Below are positions 6,793 to 41,642 of a DNA stretch of 64,000 nucleotides, piece after piece. A model generated the notes under the pieces. It did no database searches. It saw nothing but the letters and a program-made list of their open reading frames with translations, and was not told where the DNA came from. How positions within the stretch are numbered: the stretch's first letter is position 1; each line of letters opens with the position of its first letter. A program made the translations under genes and the position numbers. Origin of the DNA: Thermoanaerobaculia bacterium (GTDB lineage: Bacteria > Acidobacteriota > Thermoanaerobaculia > Multivoradales > UBA5704); assembly GCA_036399915.1 (NCBI GenBank), contig DASWME010000222.1, forward strand, positions 7,164-71,163. Reading direction: 5' to 3'.

Positions 6793-7950
6793 TCATTCCT
6801 TCCGACCCTTCACCCGCCCCGCCGCCACCAGTAGCTCCCGGACCCGTTCCACTGGGATCGCCTCCCCGCTGTGGCCCTGGTGGCCGGTGACGGTCGTGGT
6901 CTTGAGGAGGGAGTTGTAGACCGCCTCCTCGACGGCCTCGACGGCGGCCAGGAAGAGAGGGCTCATGGCGTCGTTCGTCAGCTCCTCGACGGTGAACGTC
7001 TTCTCCTTCGGCTCGTGCGGGACGAGGTTCCTGGTGGAGAAGGCGATGACGAAGTCGCCGGAGCCGTTGCTCAGGAAGGAACCGGTGCGGGCGAGGCCGA
7101 GGACGGCGCGCCTGGCCAGGCGCTCGAGGTTGCGCGAGGAGAGCGGCGCGTCCGTGGCGAGCACGATCATGCACGAGCCGGCGTCCGGCTTCTCCAGATC
7201 TTCGCGGAAGGAGTAGCGGCCGAGCCGCTCGCCGACCGGCGCGCCGTCGATCGTCAGGATTCCACCGAAGTTCGTCTGCACCAGGGCACCCACGGTATAG
7301 CCCCCGAGGCTCTTGGGGATCACCCGCGAGGAGGTCCCGATCCCGCCTTTCCAGCCGAAGGCCATCGTGCCCGTGCCGGCGCCGACGGAGCCCTCCTCGA
7401 CCGGCCCGGTGCGGGCGGCGGCGATGGCGGCGCGGACGTCGTCAGCCGTCACCTGCCGGCCCCGGATGTCGTTGAGAAAGCCATCGTTCGTCTCCCCGAC
7501 CACCGCGTTGACCGAGCGCACCTCCTGATTGCCCGGCTGCTCCAGGGTCCAGGCCACGACCGCTTCGACCGCGGTGCCGACGGCGAGGGTGTTGGTGAGC
7601 ACGACCGGCGTCTCGAGGTTGCCCAGCTCCTGCACCTGGAGGAACCCCGCCGCCTTGCCGAAGCCGTTGCCGACGTAGACGGCCGCGGGCGTCTTGCGCT
7701 GGAACAGGTTGCCGCCGTGGGGGAGGATCGCGGTGACCCCGGTGCGCACCGACTCGCCACGGATCAGGGTGCGGTGCCCGACGCGGACGCCTTCGACATC
7801 GGTGATTGCGTTGAGCGGACCGGGCGGGAAGATCCCGGGCTCGACTCCGAGATCACGGATCCGCGGCCGCGGTTCGGGATCGGCGGACCAGGCCAGTACG
7901 GGGACGAGCAGCCAGGTGAGGGCCAGGAACGGAAAGGCGATTCTCCTCAC
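6793..7950 (-). CDS. secreted DmpA/BapA-family (peptidase S58/P1) aminopeptidase
   Basis: A signal peptide is followed by NAITDVEGVRVGH..., GETNDGFLND and GAGTGTMAFGWKGGIGTSS, which includes the self-processing site region. Confidence 0.85.
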   Translation of the reverse strand: MRRIAFPFLALTWLLVPVLAWSADPEPRPRIRDLGVEPGIFPPGPLNAITDVEGVRVGHRTLIRGESVRTGVTAILPHGGNLFQRKTPAAVYVGNGFGKAAGFLQVQELGNLETPVVLTNTLAVGTAVEAVVAWTLEQPGNQEVRSVNAVVGETNDGFLNDIRGRQVTADDVRAAIAAARTGPVEEGSVGAGTGTMAFGWKGGIGTSSRVIPKSLGGYTVGALVQTNFGGILTIDGAPVGERLGRYSFREDLEKPDAGSCMIVLATDAPLSSRNLERLARRAVLGLARTGSFLSNGSGDFVIAFSTRNLVPHEPKEKTFTVEELTNDAMSPLFLAAVEAVEEAVYNSLLKTTTVTGHQGHSGEAIPVERVRELLVAAGRVKGRKE

Positions 7951-7974
7951 GGCAATCCTCCGCGCAAGATAAGA

Positions 7975-9528
7975 TCAGGTCTCCAACCCCGCTGGCCGCA
8001 ACGCCTTCTCGACCCATCCCAGCGCGCCATCCACCAGCAGGGCGAGCAGGGCCGCCGGGATGGCTCCGGAGAGGATCATCCCGGTATCCGCGAGCTGCAG
8101 GCCGGTGACGATCGGCTCGCCGAGGCCTCCGGCGCCGATGAAGGCGGCCAGGGTGGCGGTGCCGACCGTGAGGACAGCGGCCGTGCGCAGGCCGGCCATG
8201 ACCACCGGGGCGGCCAGGGGCAGGCGGATCTGACGCAGGATCTGCCCGGGGGTCATGCCCAGCGCGGTCGCCGCCTCGACGGCCCGCGGGTCGGCGTCCC
8301 GCACGCCGGTATAGGTATTCCTCACGATGGGGAAGAGCGAGTAGATCCAGAGCGCCACGATGGCGGGCACGACCCCCACGCCCAGGAAGGGGATCATGAA
8401 GGCCAGCAGCGCCAGCGAGGGGACGGTCTGGAAGAGCCCCAGGAAGCGGATGACCGCTTCCGCTCCGCGCCGGTGGCGCTCCAGCCAGAGCCCGAGGGGG
8501 ATCGAGACGAGCGCTCCCAGGAGCAGGGCCGCCGCCGACAGGCCGAGATGCTCCAGCGTGCGCCGGCCGAGGTCTCCGCGCTCGCCCCAGAGGCGAGCGA
8601 GCAGGCCGGTCTTTCGCGAAACCGGCTCCGGAGAGTTTCCCACCCTCTCCAGGAAACCCAGGGAGCGGAGGGCGTCCCGGGCCACGACGGCCTCGCTCTC
8701 ATGCCCCTCCTGAAGCCTCAGGTTCAAGGCCCGCATCGTGTCCGCGTCGAAAGCCCCGCCGAGCAGGCCGAGGACGGCGCCGATCTCGGGGTGCCTCTTC
8801 AGGGTTTCGCCGCGCACCAGGGGCGCCGCATCGTAGGGAGGAAAGAAGTTCCGGTCGTCCCGCAGGAGCTTGAGGTTGTAGAGGATGAGACGGCCGTCCG
8901 TGGAGTAGACGTCCAGGGCGTCGATCGTGCGCTGCTTCGCGGCCTGATATTGGAGGGCCTGCTGGAGGTGATCGACCGAGGCGAACTGAAGGCCGTAGAC
9001 CCTTTGGAGCCCCAGAAGGCCGTCCTCCCGGCCCACGAATTCATGGCCGAAGCCACCGTGGAGGCGTTTCGAGACCCGGGCCAGGTCGGAGATCGTCTCC
9101 AGGTGCTCCCGCTCGGCCAGCTCGCGGGGCACGGCGATCTCCCAGGAATTCTCGAACCCCAGAGGCGCGAGCCACCACAGGTTCCAACGGTGGAGGAACG
9201 CGGCGCGGACGCGGTTCAGGGTCCGCGCCGCATCGCCCGTCGCGGGCTCGCCAAGGATCGAGACCAGCCCGGTGCCGGTGTACTCGGGGTAGACGTCGAT
9301 CGCGCCGCTCTTCAGCGCCTCGAAGCAGACCTGCGTGCCCGCGAGCCCCAGGCGCCGCTCGACCTGGAGGTCGGTGCGGCTTTCCAGGAGCTGTGCGAAG
9401 ACCTCGCCGAGAAGCCGGCTCTCTTCGAAGTTCTTGGAGCCGATAACGATGCGGTCGGCAGCGGGGAGGGGGGAGGTAGCATAAGCAAGGATGAGGAAGA
9501 TGGCGGCGGCGAGGCTGCGAGGCCTCAC
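7975..9528 (-). CDS. glycine betaine/choline-type ABC transporter, fused substrate-binding + permease protein
   Basis: The N-terminal OpuBC-like SBP has IVIGSKNFEESRLLGE..YPEYTGTG. The C-terminal permease has FQTVPSLALLAF...GMTPGQILRQIRLPLA. I prefer the GTG at 9528 (MRPRSLAAAIFLILAYA signal peptide) over the track start at 9594. Confidence 0.85.
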   Translation of the reverse strand: MRPRSLAAAIFLILAYATSPLPAADRIVIGSKNFEESRLLGEVFAQLLESRTDLQVERRLGLAGTQVCFEALKSGAIDVYPEYTGTGLVSILGEPATGDAARTLNRVRAAFLHRWNLWWLAPLGFENSWEIAVPRELAEREHLETISDLARVSKRLHGGFGHEFVGREDGLLGLQRVYGLQFASVDHLQQALQYQAAKQRTIDALDVYSTDGRLILYNLKLLRDDRNFFPPYDAAPLVRGETLKRHPEIGAVLGLLGGAFDADTMRALNLRLQEGHESEAVVARDALRSLGFLERVGNSPEPVSRKTGLLARLWGERGDLGRRTLEHLGLSAAALLLGALVSIPLGLWLERHRRGAEAVIRFLGLFQTVPSLALLAFMIPFLGVGVVPAIVALWIYSLFPIVRNTYTGVRDADPRAVEAATALGMTPGQILRQIRLPLAAPVVMAGLRTAAVLTVGTATLAAFIGAGGLGEPIVTGLQLADTGMILSGAIPAALLALLVDGALGWVEKALRPAGLET

Positions 9529-9562
9529 CCCCTGGCCCCCTCTCCCTGACGGGAGAGGGAGA
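9521..9562. repeat. REP-like element copy, intercistronic between ABC ATPase and permease genes
   Basis: The sequence is ggcctcaccccctggccccctctccc-tgac-gggagaggg, with the same flank and stem as 2042-2148 and 60141-60184. Confidence 0.85.
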
Positions 9563-9586
9563 ACTCGGTCGGAGCGGATGTGCACC

Positions 9587-10330
9587 TCACACACGCCGCA
9601 TCTCCAGCAACGCCTGCACGTACGGATCCGCCGGGCGCTCGGCCAGCTCGGACGGCGGGGCGAGTTGCAGGAGGCGGCCGGCGCGCATGACGCCGATGCG
9701 ATCGGCGAGGTGGAAGGCCTCGGCGAGGTCGTGGGTCACCAGGACGGCGGTCTTGCCCAGGGTCTGCTTGAGGTCCAGGAACTGGCGATGCAGCTCCAGG
9801 CGGGTCAGGGCGTCCAAGGCGCCGAAGGGCTCGTCGAGGAGAACGAGGTGAGGATCGGCGGCGAGGGCGCGGGCGAAGGCCACGCGCTGGCGCTGCCCGC
9901 CCGAAAGCTCGGCGGGGTAGCGGCCGGCGTGGGCGTCGGGGCGGAGCCCCACCAGCTCCAGCATCTCGCGCGTCCTGGCTCGGCGGCGGTCGCGGTCCCA
10001 GCCGAGGAGGCGGGGGACCAGCTCGACGTTGCGCTCCACCCGCCAGTGGGGGATCAGGCCGCCGTCTTGCGGCACGTAGCCGATCCGGCGGCGCAGCGCG
10101 ATGGGATCGAGCTCCGCCACGGGCCGCCCTTCGACCCGCACCGCGCCGGCCGAGGGCTCGACCATGCGGTTGAAGATGCGCAGGAGCGTCGTCTTGCCGC
10201 TGCCGCTCTCGCCCACCAGCGCCACGGTCTCGCCGGGCCGCACCGCCAGGTCGACCCCCGCGAGCGCGGCCGTGCCGTCGCCCCAGGTCTTGGCGACGCC
10301 GACCGCTTCGAGGATGGGCTCGGCGGGCAC
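9587..10330 (-). CDS. ABC transporter ATP-binding protein (OpuCA/ProV-like, no CBS domains)
   Basis: It has Walker A GESGSGKTT, the signature LSGGQRQRVA and Walker B LVLLDEPF. Confidence 0.9.
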   Translation of the reverse strand: MPAEPILEAVGVAKTWGDGTAALAGVDLAVRPGETVALVGESGSGKTTLLRIFNRMVEPSAGAVRVEGRPVAELDPIALRRRIGYVPQDGGLIPHWRVERNVELVPRLLGWDRDRRRARTREMLELVGLRPDAHAGRYPAELSGGQRQRVAFARALAADPHLVLLDEPFGALDALTRLELHRQFLDLKQTLGKTAVLVTHDLAEAFHLADRIGVMRAGRLLQLAPPSELAERPADPYVQALLEMRRV

Positions 10331-24456: not shown

Positions 24457-24690
24457 ATGGACCGACGTAAGATCGTTCGCTGTTTCGCCCTCATCTGTAT
24501 GGTCGCCGGCACCCTGCAGACGGCGCAGCCCGCCCTGGCCACGCTCGACCCCTGCGTCTCCGCCTGTTTTCCGGACTACAGCCTTTGCTACGACGGTTGC
24601 CAAGGCTCTCAGCCCTGCCAGCAGGAATGCTGGGCCTACTACCAGGCCTGTCTCTGCGAGTGCAATCCGCCAAGGTACTGTCCGGCCTGA
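24457..24690 (+). CDS. secreted cysteine-rich small protein (77 aa precursor, ~49 aa mature, 10 Cys)
   Basis: AGGAGG lies 6 nt upstream of the ATG. The signal peptide MDRRKIVRCFALICMVAGTLQTAQPALA is followed by TLDPCVSACFPDYSLCYDGCQGSQPCQQECWAYYQACLCECNPPRYCPA, which has three CX3C pairs and a CxCxC. Confidence 0.7.
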   Translation: MDRRKIVRCFALICMVAGTLQTAQPALATLDPCVSACFPDYSLCYDGCQGSQPCQQECWAYYQACLCECNPPRYCPA

Positions 24691-24739: not shown

Positions 24740-25303
24740 TTACTTCAGCGCATCCAGCGCCGCCCGGATCTCCGCGTTCGACGGCCGCTGCCGGTAGTCC
24801 TCCTCGACCTTCGCCCAAGCGACCTTGCCGTTCTTGTCGATCACGTAGACCGCCGGGTGCGGGACGCCTTCGATCGGCTGCCCCTTGTAGGCGGGGTCGC
24901 GCAGGCCGTAGGCGTCGATGGTCTTGCTGCCAGGGTCGGAGAGCAGCCGGTAGCCGACCTTGCCTCTGCCGTCGGCGGCAATCTTCTCCTCGAGCTTGCG
25001 GCTGTTCTCGGGCTTGTCGATGCTGATGGCGTAGACGTCCAAGGGCTCGCCCTCCTTGCGGAGGAGCCGCAGCTCGGCCAACTGCCGAGCGCAGAACGGT
25101 CACCAGTAGCCGCGGTAGAAGACGAGCACGACCGGCCGCTGCCCGCGCGAGGCCGACAGCTTCACGGTCTGGCCGTTCTGGTCCTGCAGCGCGAAGTCCG
25201 GGGCCATGTCGCCCACCGCCACCGGCGAGGTGCGGGCCTGCTCCGCCGCGGACGCGAGGCCGGCGATCAGGACGGCGAGAGCTGCGATGCTGAATCTTCT
25301 CAT
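24740..25303 (-). CDS. exported redoxin/peroxiredoxin-like (AhpC/TSA-TlpA fold) selenoprotein candidate, UxxC active site (TGA at 25100-25102 read as Sec)
   Basis: ORFs 25100..25303 and 24740..25081 are in the same frame and are separated only by TGA. The joined sequence reads ...RPVVLVFYRGYW-U-PFCARQLAELRLL..., so the TGA replaces the first Cys of the conserved WCPxC motif. There is an N-terminal signal peptide, AGGAGG lies 7 nt before the ATG, and a SECIS-like hairpin sits downstream. Confidence 0.75.
25067..25094 (-). promoter_or_regulatory. candidate bacterial SECIS stem-loop
   Basis: The mRNA reads UGA CCGUU CUGC-GCUCGGC-AGUUG-GCCGAGC-U-GCGG. This gives 7 perfect bp plus 4 more bp across a bulged U, and a 5-nt apical loop with GU. 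The stem starts 5 nt after the UGA, and the loop G is ~20 nt from the U of UGA. Confidence 0.6.
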
Positions 25304-25329
25304 TGAAAGATCCTCCTGGAAGCTGCGGC

Positions 25330-25610
25330 CCGGGTCACGCCGCCTGACCTGCGGGTCAAGCCGTCTGACCTTCAGGTCAAGCCGCCCGACCTTCAGGTCA
25401 AGCCGTGTGACCTTCAGGTCAAGCCACCAGACCGTCAGGTCAAGTGACCTGACCTCCAGGTCAAGCTATCTGACCTTCAGGTCAAGCCCTTGACCTGGAG
25501 GTCGAGCCGCCTGACCTTCAGGTCACGCCGTCTGACCTTCAGGTCAAACTGTCTGACCTTCAGGTCAAGCCCTCGACCTGCGGGTCGAGCCGTTTGACCT
25601 TCGGGTCAGG
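25330..25610. repeat. tandem array of ~14 x 21-bp units, each containing the palindrome TGACCTnnAGGTCA
   Basis: The consensus unit is tgaccttcaggtcaagccgyc. Six exact TGACCTTCAGGTCA cores start at 25366, 25408, 25471, 25512, 25533 and 25554. The remaining units differ by 1-3 nt. The array fills the spacer between the oxidoreductase stop (25637) and the Sec-redoxin RBS (25310). Confidence 0.95.
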
Positions 25611-25636: not shown

Positions 25637-27187
25637 TCACTTGAAGGTCCGGAACCACACGTCAAAGATCTTTTTCACCGTCGGCGTCAGCTTGCCGCGC
25701 CGCCAGGTGTCGGCCGCCTTCTTCACCACCTCGCCCTGGGTGGGGTAGGGGTGGATGACGCTGGCGATCCTGGCGAGGCCGATGCCATGGGTGACGGCGA
25801 GACAGAGCTCGCCGAGCATGTCGCCCGCGTGCTCGGCCACCAGGGTGGCCCCTACGATCTTACCCTCCTTCGATCCCTTCGCGACGTGGACGCGCAGGAA
25901 GCCGTCGTCGGCGCCGTCGAGGATGGCGCGGTCGACGCCGGAGAGGGGGACCGTCAAGGTCTCGACCGCGATCCCCTTCTCGCGGGCGTCCCTCTCGTAG
26001 AGGCCGACGTGGGCGATCTCGGGCGTGGTGTAGGTGCACCAGGGCACGGTGAGGGCCGAGGCCTTGGCGCGGCCGAAGAACAGGGCGTTCTGGATGACGA
26101 TGCGCGCCTGGGCGTCGGCCACGTGGGTGAACTGGAAGCGGGACGCCACGTCGCCGCAGGCGAAGACGTTCCGGTTGCTGGTGCGCAGGTTGTCGTCCAC
26201 CTCGACGCCGCGCCTGCCGTAGGCGACGCCGGCGGCTTCGAGGCCCAGGCCCTCGACGTTGGGCGCGCGCCCGGCCGCCACCAGGATCTCGTCCGCCACC
26301 GCCTCGTGCCGCTGCCCGCCGCGCTCGAAGACGACGACCTTCTCGGCGCCCCGGCGGCGGACCTCGACGGCCTTCATGCCGAACTCGAAGTGGACGCCGT
26401 CGTCGATCATGGCCTTCTGCACGATCTCGGCGGCGTCGGCGTCCTCGCGGGGGAGGATGTGGGCTTCCTGGTTCAAGTGGGTGACGCGGCTGCCGAGGTG
26501 GGCGAAGGCCTGGGACATCTCGCAGCCGATGGGGCCGCCGCCGATCACCACCAGGCGCTTGGGCAGCTCGGTCAGGTTGAAGATCGTCTCGTTGGTGCGG
26601 AAGCCCGCCTCGGCCAGGCCCGGGATGGGCGGCTCGGCGGCGCGGGCGCCGGTGGCGATGACGGCGCGGCGGAAGCGCAGGCGCTTGCCCTCGACCTCGA
26701 CCGCGTCGGGCGCGACGAAGCGCCCCTCGCCCAGGAAGACGTCCACTCCGAGGCTGGTGAAGCGGCGGGCGCCGTCGTGCACGCTGATGCCGGCGCGCAG
26801 GCGGCGCATGCGCGCCATGGCGGCGCCGAAGTTGCCGGTAGCGTCGTGGGCGACCGGCGGGCCGCCGAAGCGGGCGGCGGCCTCGCGGGCATCGTGCCAG
26901 GCGCGGGCGGCGCGGATCACCCCCTTGGAGGGGACGCAGCCGACGTTCAGGCAGTCGCCGCCCATCAGGTGCCGCTCGAGGAGGGCCACCCGGGCGCCGA
27001 GCCCGGCGGCGCCCGCGGCCGAGACCAGGCCGGCGGTGCCCGCGCCGATCACCACCATGTGATACCGCTCCTTCGGCTCCGGGTTCACCCAGGACGATGG
27101 ATGGACGTTCTCGACGAGCTTGAGGTTGTACTCGTCCAGCGGCTCGACGGGGAACGTCGGCGGCTGCTTCAGGGCGGGCTCAGACAT
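25637..27187 (-). CDS. FAD-dependent pyridine nucleotide-disulfide oxidoreductase (mercuric reductase / dihydrolipoamide dehydrogenase-like)
   Basis: It has VVIGAGTAGLVSA and the redox-active GGDCLNVGCVPSK, plus a C-terminal dimerisation domain with HPYPTQGE. It overlaps the upstream TVP38 gene by 8 nt. Confidence 0.9.
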   Translation of the reverse strand: MSEPALKQPPTFPVEPLDEYNLKLVENVHPSSWVNPEPKERYHMVVIGAGTAGLVSAAGAAGLGARVALLERHLMGGDCLNVGCVPSKGVIRAARAWHDAREAAARFGGPPVAHDATGNFGAAMARMRRLRAGISVHDGARRFTSLGVDVFLGEGRFVAPDAVEVEGKRLRFRRAVIATGARAAEPPIPGLAEAGFRTNETIFNLTELPKRLVVIGGGPIGCEMSQAFAHLGSRVTHLNQEAHILPREDADAAEIVQKAMIDDGVHFEFGMKAVEVRRRGAEKVVVFERGGQRHEAVADEILVAAGRAPNVEGLGLEAAGVAYGRRGVEVDDNLRTSNRNVFACGDVASRFQFTHVADAQARIVIQNALFFGRAKASALTVPWCTYTTPEIAHVGLYERDAREKGIAVETLTVPLSGVDRAILDGADDGFLRVHVAKGSKEGKIVGATLVAEHAGDMLGELCLAVTHGIGLARIASVIHPYPTQGEVVKKAADTWRRGKLTPTVKKIFDVWFRTFK

Positions 27188-27959
27188 GGCGGTCCTCCGC
27201 GGCGGCCGGGGCGTCGATCTCCTGGCGCAGCGCCCTGCCGGCCAGGCGGGTGACGAACGCCGTGACCACGACCGTGGCGACGAGGCCCAGGCCGAGGACG
27301 ATCCAGGACCCAGGGCCCTTCTCCGTCCTGGCTCCTCCCGCCAGCGCCGCCAGGCTGCCGGCGGCCTTGCCGTAGTAGACGTAGAGCAGGGTGCCGGGCA
27401 GCATCGCGATCGAGGCGAGGAAGTACTGCCAGAAGCCGACCCGGGTCAGCCCCAGGGAGTAGTTGAGCAGGTTGAAGGGGAAGACTGGAGAGAGGCGCAG
27501 CAGGGCCACGATCTTGAACCCCTCGCGCCCGACCGCCCGGTCGATGGCCTCGAACTTCGGGTTGCCGGCGATCTTGCGCTCGATGGCGCCGCGCGCCACG
27601 TAGCGGGCCACCAGGAAGGCTGCGGCGGCGCCCAGCGTAGCGCCGATCATGGTGTAGAGCGTCCCCTTGACCAGCCCGAAGATGGCGCCCGCCGCGAGTG
27701 TGAGGAGCGAGCCCGGGATGAAGGCGACCGTGGCGACGGCGTAGCCCAGGATGAAGACGACCGGCCCCCACACCCCCAGGCCCTCGACCCACTGGGCGAA
27801 CCGGGGGATGTAGGCGCCCGCCTGCCGGCCGCCGAGGATCAGGGCGGCCAGGACGGCGAGGCCGATCACGGCGTAGAGGACGAGCCTGGCCTTCGACCCC
27901 GGCTTCTGCTGCGGGACGGCGTCGGCGGTGCTGTTCACAGCAGCGGCTCCTCTCTGCAT
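27180..27959 (-). CDS. TVP38/TMEM64 (DedA-superfamily) membrane protein
   Basis: FIPGSLLTLAAGAIFG...LLRLSPVFPFNLLNYSLGLT is present. The ATG at 27959 lies inside the longer ORF 27180..28493. Confidence 0.8.
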   Translation of the reverse strand: MQRGAAAVNSTADAVPQQKPGSKARLVLYAVIGLAVLAALILGGRQAGAYIPRFAQWVEGLGVWGPVVFILGYAVATVAFIPGSLLTLAAGAIFGLVKGTLYTMIGATLGAAAAFLVARYVARGAIERKIAGNPKFEAIDRAVGREGFKIVALLRLSPVFPFNLLNYSLGLTRVGFWQYFLASIAMLPGTLLYVYYGKAAGSLAALAGGARTEKGPGSWIVLGLGLVATVVVTAFVTRLAGRALRQEIDAPAAAEDRHV

Positions 27960-30037: not shown

Positions 30038-31669
30038 CTACTGGTGCTCGGGTCGCAGCAGGTCCAGCACCGTCTTGACGGGCGCGAAGGTCGAGTCCGG
30101 CACCTCCACGAACACGGTGTTCCAGCCCGCCATGGCGCCGTTCCACAGGCCGGGACGCTCCAGGGCCTTCAAGGGGCGCCCCTCGTGGGACTTCTCGGAG
30201 ATGAAGACGGTCGCGGGATCGACGTAGCGGTTGAGGTCGTAGGGCCGGCCGTGGCGGTCGCGCAGGCCGCAGGCGATGTCCACCGGATTGAAGTGGGTGG
30301 ACTCCTGGAGGATCGCCTGCTGCTGCTCCGGATCGTCGGGATCGATCTGCGAAGCCTCGACGATCTGCGGAGAGATCCCGCCTGAGGGGGACTCCACCCA
30401 GAAGGGACCGCCGCCCGGCTCGCCCTGGTTGCGCACCACGCCGCAGACGCGCAGCGGCCGGTCGAGCGAGTCCATCAGGAACCGTCTCCTCTCCCGCGGA
30501 CCTGCCTGGGAGAACCCTGCGGGCAGCGGCCGGCAGAGCTCGTCCCCGAGGAACTCCCCGGCTCGCCGCAGCACGGCTTCGGCCGCCTTGCCCTTGACGC
30601 CGTCCAGCGTCTCCAGGCGGTCCAGGTGGCCGAAGACCCGCTCGCGCACGGCGAGCAGGCAGCCGCCGAGGAGCCGCTTCCAGAGGTGGACCACCGGCTT
30701 GCGGTCGTCGGGCACGACGTTGTCGATGTTCTTGAGGAGGATGACGTCCCACCCCTCGCGCCCGAGGTCCTTCAGGTTGGTGATGAGGGCGCCGTGGCCC
30801 CCCGGCCGGAACAGGAGCGAGCCGTCGTCCAGCCGGAACGGGCGGTCCTGGAGATCGACGGCCAGGGTGTCCGTCGAGTGCCGCTGGGTGGAGAAGGAGA
30901 CCTCGAAGCGGCAGTCGTAGCGCTCCTCGAGGGCCGGCCGCACCCGGTCGAGCAGGCGCTCGAACTCCTCCTGGTGCTCGGGCGAGACGGTGAAGTGGAG
31001 CAGGCAGAGGCCGCTGTCGTCGCGGGCGATGGCCGCCGCCTCCACCAGGTGCTCCTCGAAGGCCGTGCGCGGCCCTTCGGGATAGCGGTGGAACGGCAGC
31101 AGCCCCTTGGGCAGCTCGGCATAGCCGAGGCCGGCATCCGTGAGCAGGTAGGTGAGGACAAGGCGGTAGTCGCCGCTCCGCACCGCCTCCTCCAAGTCGA
31201 TGCCGTCGGCCCCCAGGGCCGCCGCCAGGTCCTCGTAGAAGGCGAAGCGGTGGAGGCTCTCGAAGAAGGTCCGCACCGGTCCTGCCGGCGCGGCGTCGGC
31301 GGGCTCCGAGAGGAACGCCAGCAGGTCCTGGAACATCCGGGTGGCGGCCCCCGAAGCGGGAACGAACTTGGCCGTACGGCCCCGGCGGGCCGCCGCGCCG
31401 TAATGGGCGAGCAGGTCCGGATGCTCGGCCGCCGAGATGGACCTGATGCCGTCGCCGGGCCGGCAGGGGCGCAGCACGCGGGTGTACGGGGGCGGGTTGC
31501 GGAAGAGCGCGACCTGCCGGGCGGCTTCCTCCGGCGCGAGGCCCATCGCGGACATCTGCCGGAGGTCGCGGGACGTGAACAGAGACTCCTCCATGGCGGC
31601 GGAGATCACCGCGGGAGCCGCGGAGAGAGAGTCATGGCTCGTCGTTTTCTCAGGAGTCGTTTTTCCCAT
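30038..31669 (-). CDS. DUF4301-like protein (UDPGP-type nucleotidyltransferase-like fold, function unknown)
   Basis: [41 protein letters not shown] and HFNPVD are present, as I remember them from DUF4301. An alternative start lies at 31594. The track start overlaps rfbC by 20 nt. Confidence 0.5.
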
Positions 31670-32216
31670 CGGGCGGCAGCAGATGCAGGATCTCCGCCAA
31701 CCTCGGAGCGGCCCGGTCCCTGGCGCTGAGCAGGGGGTCCTCGACGGGCCAGGCGATGCCGATCCGGGGGTCGTTCCAGGCGATCCCGATCTCGTCCTCG
31801 CGGTCGTAGAGCTCCGTGCACTTGTACAGCACGTGCGCCGAGTCGGAGAGCACGCAGAAGCCGTGGGCGAAACCGGGCGGGATGTAGAGCTGGCGGAAGT
31901 TCTCTCCAGAGAGAACCTCGCCCACCCACTTGCCGAAGGTCGGGGAGTGCGGCCGGATGTCGACCGCCACGTCGAAGATCTCTCCCAGGACGGCGCGCAC
32001 GAGCTTGCCCTGCGGCTGCCGGAGCTGGGCGTGGAGACCCCGGAGGATGCCGCGGCGGGAGAAGGAGTGGTTGTCCTGCACGAAGGTACCGGGCAGGCCC
32101 CCCTCCTCGAACTTGCGCTGATGGTAGACCTCCAGGAAGAAGCCGCGGTCGTCGCCGAGCACGTCGGGCTCGACCCGGATGACCTCGGGGAGGCCGGGCA
32201 TGGGCAGAAATTTCAC
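31650..32216 (-). CDS. rfbC: dTDP-4-dehydrorhamnose 3,5-epimerase
   Basis: [11 protein letters not shown]...RGLHAQ...[18 protein letters not shown]...[11 protein letters not shown] is present. The GTG start overlaps the rfbB stop (GTGA). Confidence 0.9.
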
Positions 32217-33322
32217 GCGCCCTGCTCCCGGCTTGCCGTTTTCGTCCCCAGCCCCAGGCGCTCGCGGCCGTACCGGCCCGCCTGCACGGCCTCGCACCAG
32301 GCGCGGTTGTCGAGATACCAGCGCACCGTGGCGCGCAGCCCGGCGGCGAAGTCGTGCCGGGGGGCCCAGCCCAGCTCGGTCCGGGCCCTGGCGTCGTCGA
32401 TGGCATAACGGCGGTCGTGGCCGGGGCGGTCGGGGACGAAGGTCTTGAGGTCCTTGTAGGAGGCGATTCCCCGGTGGGCGAGAGCGGGGTTGCCGGCCGC
32501 CGGCCGCTCGCTCTCCAGCGTCTCGCAGATTGAGTCCACGATCTCGAGGTTCGTCCGCTCGCTCCGGCCGCCCAGGTTGTACTTCTCGCCCGGCCGGCCG
32601 CGGCGCAGGACCTCGAGGACGCCGCGGCAGTGGTCCTCCACGTAGATCCAGTCGCGCACGTTGCCGCCGTCGCCGTAGATGGGCAGGGGCCTGCCCTCGA
32701 GAGCGTTGAGCGTCATCAGCGGGATCAGCTTCTCGGGGAACTGGTAGGGGCCGTAGTTGTTCGAGCAGTTGGTGATGAGGACGGGCAGGCCGTAGGTCGC
32801 GTGCCAGGCCCGCACCAGGTGGTCCGCGCCCGCCTTGGAGGCGGCGTACGGGGAGTTGGGGGCGTAGGGGGTGGCCTCGGTGAAGGCTCCGGCCGGTCCC
32901 AGGCTGCCGTAGACCTCGTCGGTCGAGACGTGGAGGAAGCGGAAGGCGCGCCGGCCGGCCTCGTCGAGGCCCGCGAGGTGATGGCGGGCCGCTTCGAGCA
33001 GCTCGAAGACGCCCACGACGTTGGTCCGGATGAAGGCGCTCGCGTCGTCGATCGAGCGGTCGACGTGGCTCTCGGCGGCGAAGTTGACGACCGCCGCGGG
33101 CCGGCGCTCGGCGAAGATCCGCCGCACCTCCCGGCGGTCCGCGATGTCCCCCTGGAGGAACTCCAGGCGGGGATCGTCCAGCACGCCGGCGAGGTTCTCG
33201 CGGCTTCCGGCGTAGGTGAGCTTGTCGAGCACGAGGACGCGGTCGGCCGTCTCCGCGAGGACGAGCCGCACGAAGTTGCAGCCGATGAAGCCGGCTCCGC
33301 CGGTGACGAGGATCGTGTCCAT
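32213..33322 (-). CDS. rfbB: dTDP-glucose 4,6-dehydratase
   Basis: [31 protein letters not shown] and YAASKAG are present. Confidence 0.95.
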
Positions 33323-33422
33323 GGAGTTCTTGGCCCCGGGGGCGGTGCAGCCGGGGAAGTATAGCCGTATCCGGGCGAGAGGCTGTGGGGCGTCCGGGTC
33401 TGGCGTAGAATCGCGCGACTAT

Positions 33423-40250: not shown

Positions 40251-41642
<1,392 letters not shown>

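Follow-up and report, generated by a model that had tools for sequence, protein, structure and literature searches.

Selenoproteins of the peroxiredoxin (Prx)-like type, in which selenocysteine (Sec, U) occupies the first position of a UxxC motif, have been described under several names, including "Prx-like protein" (Sargasso Sea study) and "Prx-like 1" (the study of the Global Ocean Sampling, GOS), with WP_010940744.1 as a representative. The GOS study recorded "Prx-like 1, pfam00578, UxxC" as 225 Sec and 2,740 Cys forms, a table in a 2016 survey gives counts of 28 and 32 for the Prx-like family, and reviews from 2022 and 2026 carry it under the name "Prx-like thiol:disulfide oxidoreductase, PF00578, UxxC/UxxU". 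The bacterial selenocysteine insertion sequence (bSECIS) is defined in the Zhang and Gladyshev model, as given in the Figure 2 legend of PMC13188914, by an apical loop of 3–9 nt with a G in its first two positions, an upper stem of 4–16 bp, a distance of 16–37 nt from the UGA, and a minimum free energy (MFE) of −7.5 kcal/mol or lower. The gene considered here lies at 24740-25303 on the reverse strand of a 64,000-nucleotide stretch from a Thermoanaerobaculia bacterium (Acidobacteriota; GenBank assembly GCA_036399915.1, contig DASWME010000222.1, positions 7,164 to 71,163), hereafter called the window. The SdhA of this organism shows 85–93% identity to proteins labelled as Thermoanaerobaculia. 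It encodes a redoxin whose reading frame is interrupted by a single TGA, and this TGA is very probably a genuine Sec codon served by a functional SECIS element.

On the evidence of domain and motif, the window gene is a member of the known Prx-like UxxC family, WP_010940744.1 having been compared by description only, and the placement in a known class of UxxC redoxins made in an earlier note on this DNA agrees with the literature definition (PF00578 plus UxxC). The shared features are the PF00578 domain, a Sec residue standing first in a thioredoxin-like UxxC that replaces the TxxC/TxxU of peroxiredoxins, and the existence of many Cys homologues; in addition, the sequence F-Y-R-G-x-W-U-P-[FY]-C is common to the window gene and to the Geobacter/Geobacteraceae members L005 and L038. 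The Acidobacteriota clade to which the window gene belongs differs from the described family in a signal peptide, judged by eye, and in a K-I-A-A-D-G-[RK]-G insertion, and the window protein is ∼35–45% identical to most other Sec forms retrieved. Judged from these sequence features, the gene represents a distinct and putatively exported Acidobacteriota clade of Prx-like UxxC selenoproteins. In the searchable literature, Thermoanaerobaculia are not mentioned together with selenocysteine.

Reading frame and close relatives

From position 25303 to 24740, one frame of 188 codons including the terminal TAA contains the TGA at 25102-25100 as its sole internal stop, and the two open reading frames (ORFs) listed separately at 25100..25303 and 24740..25081, which the earlier note had proposed to join, do share this frame and translate together into 187 residues. 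The same note had placed the TGA at the first Cys of a WCPxC motif, and alignment bears this out, the homologues reading F-Y-R-G-x-W-C-P-[FY]-C with the window TGA at the first Cys. Among 23 full-length homologues (52–66% identity), mostly from Pyrinomonadaceae and other Acidobacteriota, 22 have Cys at the stop column and one has Trp, and the window gene retains all 31 invariant family columns across both sides of the TGA. Across the 64 kb, this is the only TGA lying in DNA with a third-position GC content (GC3) above 0.85 and with at least 30 open codons on each side, besides an ordinary gene end at 41640. TGA is also the commonest ordinary stop in the window, and a genome-wide reassignment of TGA is therefore excluded. 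A scan of the TGA codons flanked by coding sequence in the 64 kb yielded no second selenoprotein gene, and two further same-frame ORF pairs (6793-9735 and 30038-33418) proved to be merely adjacent genes.

An interruption of this kind could also mark a pseudogene, a dead gene whose TGA arose by mutation of a Cys (TGC/TGT) or Trp (TGG) codon and whose hairpin, described below, is a by-product of GC-rich coding sequence. A single base change converts TGC or TGG to TGA, the homologue P0003 carries Trp at the column in question (W-W-P-Y-C; TGG is one base from TGA), and at 95% GC3 frames stay open for long distances without selection. Against this, relatives obtained by querying a protein collection with just the 119 residues that follow the stop were, at every identity above ∼70%, fragments of ∼100–115 residues starting just past the stop, the nearest (74–88%) being nearly all 113 residues long. 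These relatives form ∼35 clusters truncated at the same point, several of them with many member sequences, and full-length Cys proteins appear only at 70% identity or less to the C-terminal 119 residues.

The DNA of four relatives (L248–L251) from four other samples (JGI 3300086037, Logan SRR31724269, NCBI GCA_966190215.1, and Logan SRR29837673) was compared with the window, the encoded proteins being 80–88% identical to the window protein over the C-terminal part. Each of the four carries TGA at the same codon, with frameshifts and other stops absent, and each retains the 19 nt GCUCGGC-AGUUG-GCCGAGC of the hairpin unchanged. Downstream of the TGA (119 codons, 10 pairwise comparisons), synonymous divergence (dS) is 0.36–0.74, nonsynonymous divergence (dN) is 0.07–0.16, and dN/dS is ∼0.14–0.32, and the 42 codons upstream of the TGA give similar values. 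Synonymous sites around the hairpin vary among the relatives, whereas the nucleotides of the hairpin itself are invariant. It follows that translation and selection extend past the stop and that constraint on the hairpin acts on its nucleotides. As far as these sequences go, neither a recent nonsense mutation nor a sequencing error can account for this pattern, and the retention of the TGA at such synonymous distances makes a pseudogene highly improbable. In one of these relatives (L248, 5249-5809), the motif reads U-F-F-C in place of U-P-F-C.

A sequencing or assembly error hiding a true TGC codon would find some support in the fact that the exact window sequence occurs in one assembly only. 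The locus L001 is 100% identical and probably derives from the same assembly, two further loci (L002 and L003) end at 25422, short of the redoxin gene, and the 67-residue N-terminal fragment is present on a single contig. An error is nevertheless extremely improbable, as TGA stands at the same codon in the four related assemblies from JGI, Logan (two), and NCBI, and the codons chosen downstream follow the pattern of the Sec forms. The split expected of standard annotation pipelines is found in practice: gene calls in five assemblies give fragments of 65–92 residues plus 100–113 residues, with the JGI label "peroxiredoxin".

The hairpin downstream of the UGA

The hairpin begins 5 nt past the UGA and reads CUGC-GCUCGGC-[AGUUG]-GCCGAGC-U-GCGG, with 7 perfect bp plus 4 bp across a bulged U, exactly as first described. 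Folded alone, it reaches −18.2 kcal/mol (z = −3.3 against dinucleotide shuffles, with 1 of 200 shuffles as good). A 71-nt fold around the UGA is insignificant (z = −0.57 in DNA of 70% GC), a result which, together with the readiness of GC-rich DNA to fold, speaks for the hairpin as a by-product of a dead gene; energy alone was therefore rejected as evidence, and comparative evidence was needed. The window hairpin passes all four bSECIS criteria (loop AGUUG, 7 + 4 bp, spacing of 16 nt, −18.2 kcal/mol). A scan of the window at the Rfam gathering thresholds returned three tRNAs only and no match to a SECIS family. A covariance model trained on the Sec forms of 42 other genomes, with the window excluded, matches positions 25058-25102 of the reverse strand at 45.0 bits (E = 6.5e-13), against 13.2 bits for the second-best match in the window, and among 100 Cys-form loci its top score is 28.4 bits, with the remainder at 20.8 bits or lower.

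In its architecture, the predicted element resembles the SECIS of Escherichia coli fdhF, lying directly 3′ of the UGA inside the ORF with a 5-nt loop that bears a G at position 2 and a U after it, a stem of 7 + 4 bp, and 16 nt between UGA and loop. It differs in that its sequence is unrelated, its bulged U lies on the 3′ side of the stem, and it is built from the conserved codons for A-R-Q-L-A-E-L; moreover, members of the redoxin family use at least two registers, with the loop centred at +20/21 or at +24/25.

The distribution of the interrupted motif was examined by scanning GTDB, one genome per species, with the pattern TAY-MGN-GGN-NNN-TGG-TGA-CCN-TWY-TGY, for which ∼9 chance matches would be expected at equal base frequencies by our own estimate. 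At least 120 GTDB loci carry Y-R-G-x-W-TGA-P-[FY]-C, all of them in frame within redoxin-like ORFs, and the frame is open on both sides in all 114 loci that are uncut by contig ends, a set that includes L001, the window's own contig. Thus, the column carries Cys in the full-length homologues with the one exception given above, and TGA in at least 120 genomes and in the close relatives, which is the pattern the earlier note had named as support. Of the refutation checks proposed in that note, those carried out here all favour selenocysteine. By their record titles, the TGA forms among the matches listed come from many phyla, among them Acidobacteriota, Desulfobacterota, Poribacteria, Gemmatimonadota, Chloroflexota, Planctomycetota, Actinomycetota, Myxococcota, and Alpha-, Beta-, and Gammaproteobacteria, and four other metagenome-assembled genomes of Thermoanaerobaculia are among the Sec forms listed.

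As a control, 120 loci with a TGY codon at the same position were taken from metagenomes, of which 111 were compared with the 114 TGA loci. The mean MFE of the region from +3 to +48 is −13.2 kcal/mol in TGA and −8.5 kcal/mol in TGY loci (P = 3e-14), and the mean z against synonymous-codon shuffles is −1.1 and −0.3, respectively (P = 7e-8). Hairpins of 6 bp or more occur in 99/114 TGA vs 57/111 TGY loci, the loop is centred at +20/21 or +24/25 in 75 vs 14, and Gln-Leu is encoded as CAG-UUG in 35/67 vs 5/40. All four bSECIS criteria are passed by 48 of the 114 TGA loci and by just 5 of the 111 TGY loci (Fisher P = 4.5e-12), and the loop G is present in every one of the 48 passing TGA hairpins. 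The scarcity of such hairpins in Cys forms and the fixation of the hairpin nucleotides amid varying synonymous sites both argue against a hairpin that merely accompanies GC-rich coding sequence.

Covariation points to the same conclusion. In 42 Sec forms other than the window, double-sided changes occur in 7/7 stem pairs, and 76 compensatory cells are observed against 25.5 in shuffles, with none of 500 shuffles reaching the observed value. Identical residues, (U/C)-P-[FY]-C-A-R-Q-L-A-E-L, are encoded in Sec forms by the pairing codons GCU CGG CAG UUR GCY GAG, whereas L245 and L246/L247, which are Cys forms, encode the same residues by other synonymous codons and have no hairpin. The Thermoanaerobaculia orthologue L016 shows a compensatory U-A to C-G change in the stem. 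A single clade of Sec forms was not recovered: a rough neighbor-joining tree scattered them on long branches among Cys forms and gives no basis for counting the switches between Sec and Cys.

The genes for Sec synthesis and decoding provide a further line of evidence at the level of the family. Among all fetched loci, ARAGORN found tRNA-Sec in four, all of which are Sec-form loci (L027, L044, L074, and L112), and found none in the 120 Cys-form loci. The ORFs beside these tRNA-Sec genes encode SelA (PF03841, up to 1.6e-160) and SelB (winged-helix and beta-barrel domains). In these loci, which are of proteobacterial type, the Prx-like selenoprotein gene lies 0.2–4.4 kb from selA-selB-tRNA-Sec or selB-tRNA-Sec (L027, 3135-6659; L112, 1858-5105; L074, 3399-4710; and L044, 4201-5057). 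The TGA is therefore physically tied to selA-selB-selC at the family level, and a capacity for Sec decoding in the window organism itself is only implied.

Alternatively, the arrangement could be a relic in a lineage that has lost SelA, SelB, and SelC, with the UGA read weakly by a near-cognate tRNA (Trp or Cys) or with two products made through reinitiation at TTG 25081. The 64-kb window, the sole sequence examined for this organism, contains no Sec machinery, and gene callers place a TTG start 19 nt past the stop. UGA followed by C is a weak termination context, which also counts for this explanation. However, the hairpin and its loop are strictly kept in five diverged sequences, which implies current use, and the TTG is not preceded by a Shine-Dalgarno sequence. 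Furthermore, the C-terminal piece alone cannot form a thioredoxin fold, the active site and strands b1–b3 being in the N-terminal piece, and Sec and Cys are exchanged easily in the family, so that a Sec-less lineage would be expected to carry TGC. A relic, or a UGA decoded in another way, is accordingly very improbable.

Several considerations weigh against a genuine Sec codon with a functional SECIS and against the role proposed below. No selA, selB, selD, or tRNA-Sec was found in the 64-kb window by ARAGORN, by the Rfam scan, by Pfam scans of ∼30 ORFs, or in the gene calls of L001 (three ordinary tRNAs were found), the rest of the genome lying outside this search. The window sequence is known from a single assembly, and sampling differs between the Sec set from GTDB genomes and the Cys controls from metagenomes. 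The covariation set had been preselected for the register of the window hairpin, which makes the percentage of paired positions circular, and it is the compensatory counts and the unselected comparisons that carry weight. The family as a whole is ranked by the 2022 and 2026 reviews as a high-confidence prediction that is not experimentally verified, and export, substrate, and reductant of the window protein are inferred. Against these stand the conserved TGA, the covarying and TGA-specific hairpin, and purifying selection on both halves of the gene, on which the Sec reading rests.

Fold, active site, and a possible mode of action

When Cys is put in place of the stop, the joined protein matches PF00578 (AhpC-TSA; 1.4e-30, residues 30-163, 106.3 bits against a cut-off of 26) across both halves and PF08534 (Redoxin; 6.5e-22), likewise spanning both fragments. 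Among solved structures, its sequence is matched by peroxiredoxins of the BCP/PrxQ type and AhpE and, less strongly, by ResA, TlpA, and Etrx. The AlphaFold model of the Cys orthologue P0002 (64% identical; predicted local distance difference test score, pLDDT, 89.7) is nearest to Mycobacterium tuberculosis AhpE, then to BCP and Tpx, with ResA further down, and its top Foldseek matches in the PDB are 4x1u, 1xvw, and 2cx3 (TM 0.74–0.9). The N-terminal signal-like segment has low pLDDT in this model; the N-termini of relatives differ in sequence from that of the window protein, are equally hydrophobic, and end in A-x-A. Judged by eye, all of these N-termini resemble cleavable signal peptides.

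The canonical peroxiredoxins AhpE, BCP/PrxQ, and Tpx share the overall fold, and Cys71 of the window protein stands in the column of their peroxidatic Cys, but their signature P-x-x-x-T-x-x-C plus Arg is lacking. In alignments to 2ywn and 2cx3, the Pro is replaced by Arg64 (invariant within the clade of the window gene), the Thr by Sec68, and the catalytic Arg by Pro150, which has an invariant G-[IV]-P148 just N-terminal of it, and the NCBIfam models for PrxQ, Tpx, and BCP score 26–51 bits against cut-offs of 123–260. From these residue-level alignments, the active site is therefore thioredoxin-like, with UxxC set opposite a proline loop, on a scaffold of the peroxiredoxin type. Periplasmic TlpA, ResA, and CcmG (DsbE) resemble the window protein in being exported thioredoxin-fold proteins (export being judged by eye here) with W-C-x-x-C and a Pro in the loop opposite the active site, and ResA, TlpA, and Etrx are matched in sequence and fold. 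The window fold is nevertheless nearer to peroxiredoxins than to ResA, and scores fall below the curated cut-offs (ResA, 38.7 vs 170; TlpA, 25.2 vs 230; DsbE, 17.7 vs 123), so the resemblance is one of mode of action and not of membership. Similarly, SelL and SelL-related proteins have a Prx-like fold whose redox motif is in the same position, and NF040769 (SelL-related) gives a weak match (3.1e-13, 49.7 bits, below the 120-bit cut-off), but SelL proper has UxxU and is eukaryotic or aquatic, whereas the window protein has UxxC.

A course of events can be proposed by analogy with the canonical bacterial mechanism. The ribosome would meet UGA at codon 68, where the hairpin starting at +5 nt would display its AGUUG loop 16 nt past the UGA. 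SelB-GTP carrying Sec-tRNA(Sec) would bind this loop, in which a U follows the G at position 2, and Sec would be inserted in place of termination; the ribosome would then unwind the hairpin and read it as C-A-R-Q-L-A-E-L-R. The signal peptide would export the protein from the cytoplasm, and U68-P-F-C71 on the AhpE/BCP-like fold would most likely carry out selenol/thiol-disulfide exchange of the TlpA/thioredoxin kind through a Sec68-Cys71 selenenylsulfide, in preference to canonical Prx catalysis, and a membrane electron relay may re-reduce the selenenylsulfide. A role as an exported thiol-disulfide oxidoreductase is thus favoured with some reserve, and reduction of peroxide by the selenolate is possible.

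The surroundings of one Cys orthologue, P0092 (L246/L247, 1-3600), include an extracytoplasmic function (ECF) sigma/anti-sigma pair upstream and genes for DsbD_N and a DsbD_TM-redoxin fusion downstream. DsbD_N and DsbD_TM represent the usual electron supply of such proteins, so this arrangement fits a periplasmic reductase and suggests an envelope-stress-regulated periplasmic reductase pathway for Cys forms. No DsbD or CcdA gene is present within the 64-kb window.

Neighbouring genes and implications

The redoxin gene is preceded by genes for a flavin adenine dinucleotide (FAD)-dependent oxidoreductase and a DedA/VTT-domain membrane protein (Table 1), and the FAD oxidoreductase is a probable operon partner of the redoxin. 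In the relative L248 (2900-5809), the order is DedA/VTT, FAD disulfide oxidoreductase, split redoxin, and major facilitator superfamily (MFS) transporter, as in the window; in L249 (1-2842), the first three of these genes are followed by an insert of a PIN/MazE pair and a YaeQ gene, and then by the MFS gene. The gap between oxidoreductase and redoxin genes is 22–41 nt in L248 and L249, and a 40%-identical oxidoreductase adjoins the Pyrinomonadaceae Sec form L057 (3497-4960). The tight gene order kept in these Thermoanaerobaculia relatives and the adjoining oxidoreductase of L057, three genomes in all, hint at a functional module. That such a module would combine a DedA/VTT membrane protein, a cytoplasmic FAD disulfide reductase, and an exported UxxC selenoprotein is a doubtful proposal; if true, it would be an undescribed route by which reducing power, or selenium or another chalcogen, crosses the membrane to a periplasmic selenoenzyme.

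Table 1. Positions of the predicted selenoprotein gene, its parts, and its upstream neighbours in the window
Feature	Position	Strand	Details
Complete selenoprotein gene (predicted)	24740..25303	-	187 residues; ATG 25303-25301; Sec-UGA = codon 68; TAA 24742-24740; AhpC/TSA-fold Prx-like UxxC redoxin
In-frame UGA, predicted Sec68, first position of the U-P-F-C redox motif	25100..25102	-	Homologue column and TGA kept in relatives
UGC codon of Cys71, second residue of UxxC	25091..25093	-	Column of BCP/PrxQ peroxidatic Cys in alignments to 2ywn and 2cx3; C71 invariant
Bacterial SECIS hairpin (predicted) within the coding sequence, codons C-A-R-Q-L-A-E-L-R	25067..25094	-	Lower stem 4 bp; bulged U; upper stem 7 bp (25084-25090 / 25072-25078); apical loop AGUUG 25079-25083
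Shine-Dalgarno-like AGGAGG	25312..25317	-	8 nt 5′ of ATG; read from sequence
Signal-peptide-like N-terminus, MRRFSIAALAVLIAGLASA then AE	25247..25303	-	Judged by eye, no predictor; implies export
FAD-dependent pyridine-nucleotide disulfide oxidoreductase, upstream neighbour	25637..27187	-	516 residues; NF004991, 770.9 bits vs 620 cut-off
DedA/VTT-domain membrane protein gene	27180..27938	-	Overlaps start of FAD oxidoreductase gene; PF09335 VTT_dom in gene calls of L001, L248, and L249

Between the FAD oxidoreductase and selenoprotein genes lies a tandem array (25333-25608) in which a 21-nt unit (consensus GGTCAAGCCGCCTGACCTTCA) is repeated 13.2 times; the window has no other strong tandem repeat. 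Most units of the array hold the 14-nt palindrome TGACCTTCAGGTCA or a one-mismatch variant of it (11 sites vs 0.06 expected). The array is missing from L248 and L249, and the assemblies of two near-identical strains (L002 and L003) break inside it at 25422. It could act as an array of RNA hairpins or of protein-binding sites that modulates selenoprotein expression. An unrelated array (33-nt unit, 5.7 copies) lies at 5658-5849 of L016, ∼450 nt upstream of the Thermoanaerobaculia Sec-form orthologue. A general link between tandem arrays and Sec forms was rejected, as arrays occur near 4/114 Sec and 6/111 Cys loci, which shows no association. On the other side of the redoxin gene and convergent with it, a 77-residue ORF (24457-24690, forward strand), which is among the gene calls of L001, starts with a signal-peptide-like segment and carries 12 Cys in its ∼50 mature residues; it has no NCBIfam or recorded Pfam match and no counterpart near the other fetched loci.

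The finding leaves the current understanding of Sec decoding unchanged. It is of use for annotation and for its unusually clean comparative evidence. The family is widespread (at least 120 GTDB species) yet without experimental characterisation, and it offers a clean natural case of a SECIS made from conserved codons, those for A-R-Q-L-A-E-L, with Sec and Cys forms of identical residues differing just in their synonymous codons. The window locus and dozens of related clusters sit in public databases as two "peroxiredoxin" fragments, and joining them through the predicted Sec68 restores a complete enzyme. Read in this way, the joined gene marks Thermoanaerobaculia as selenium users.

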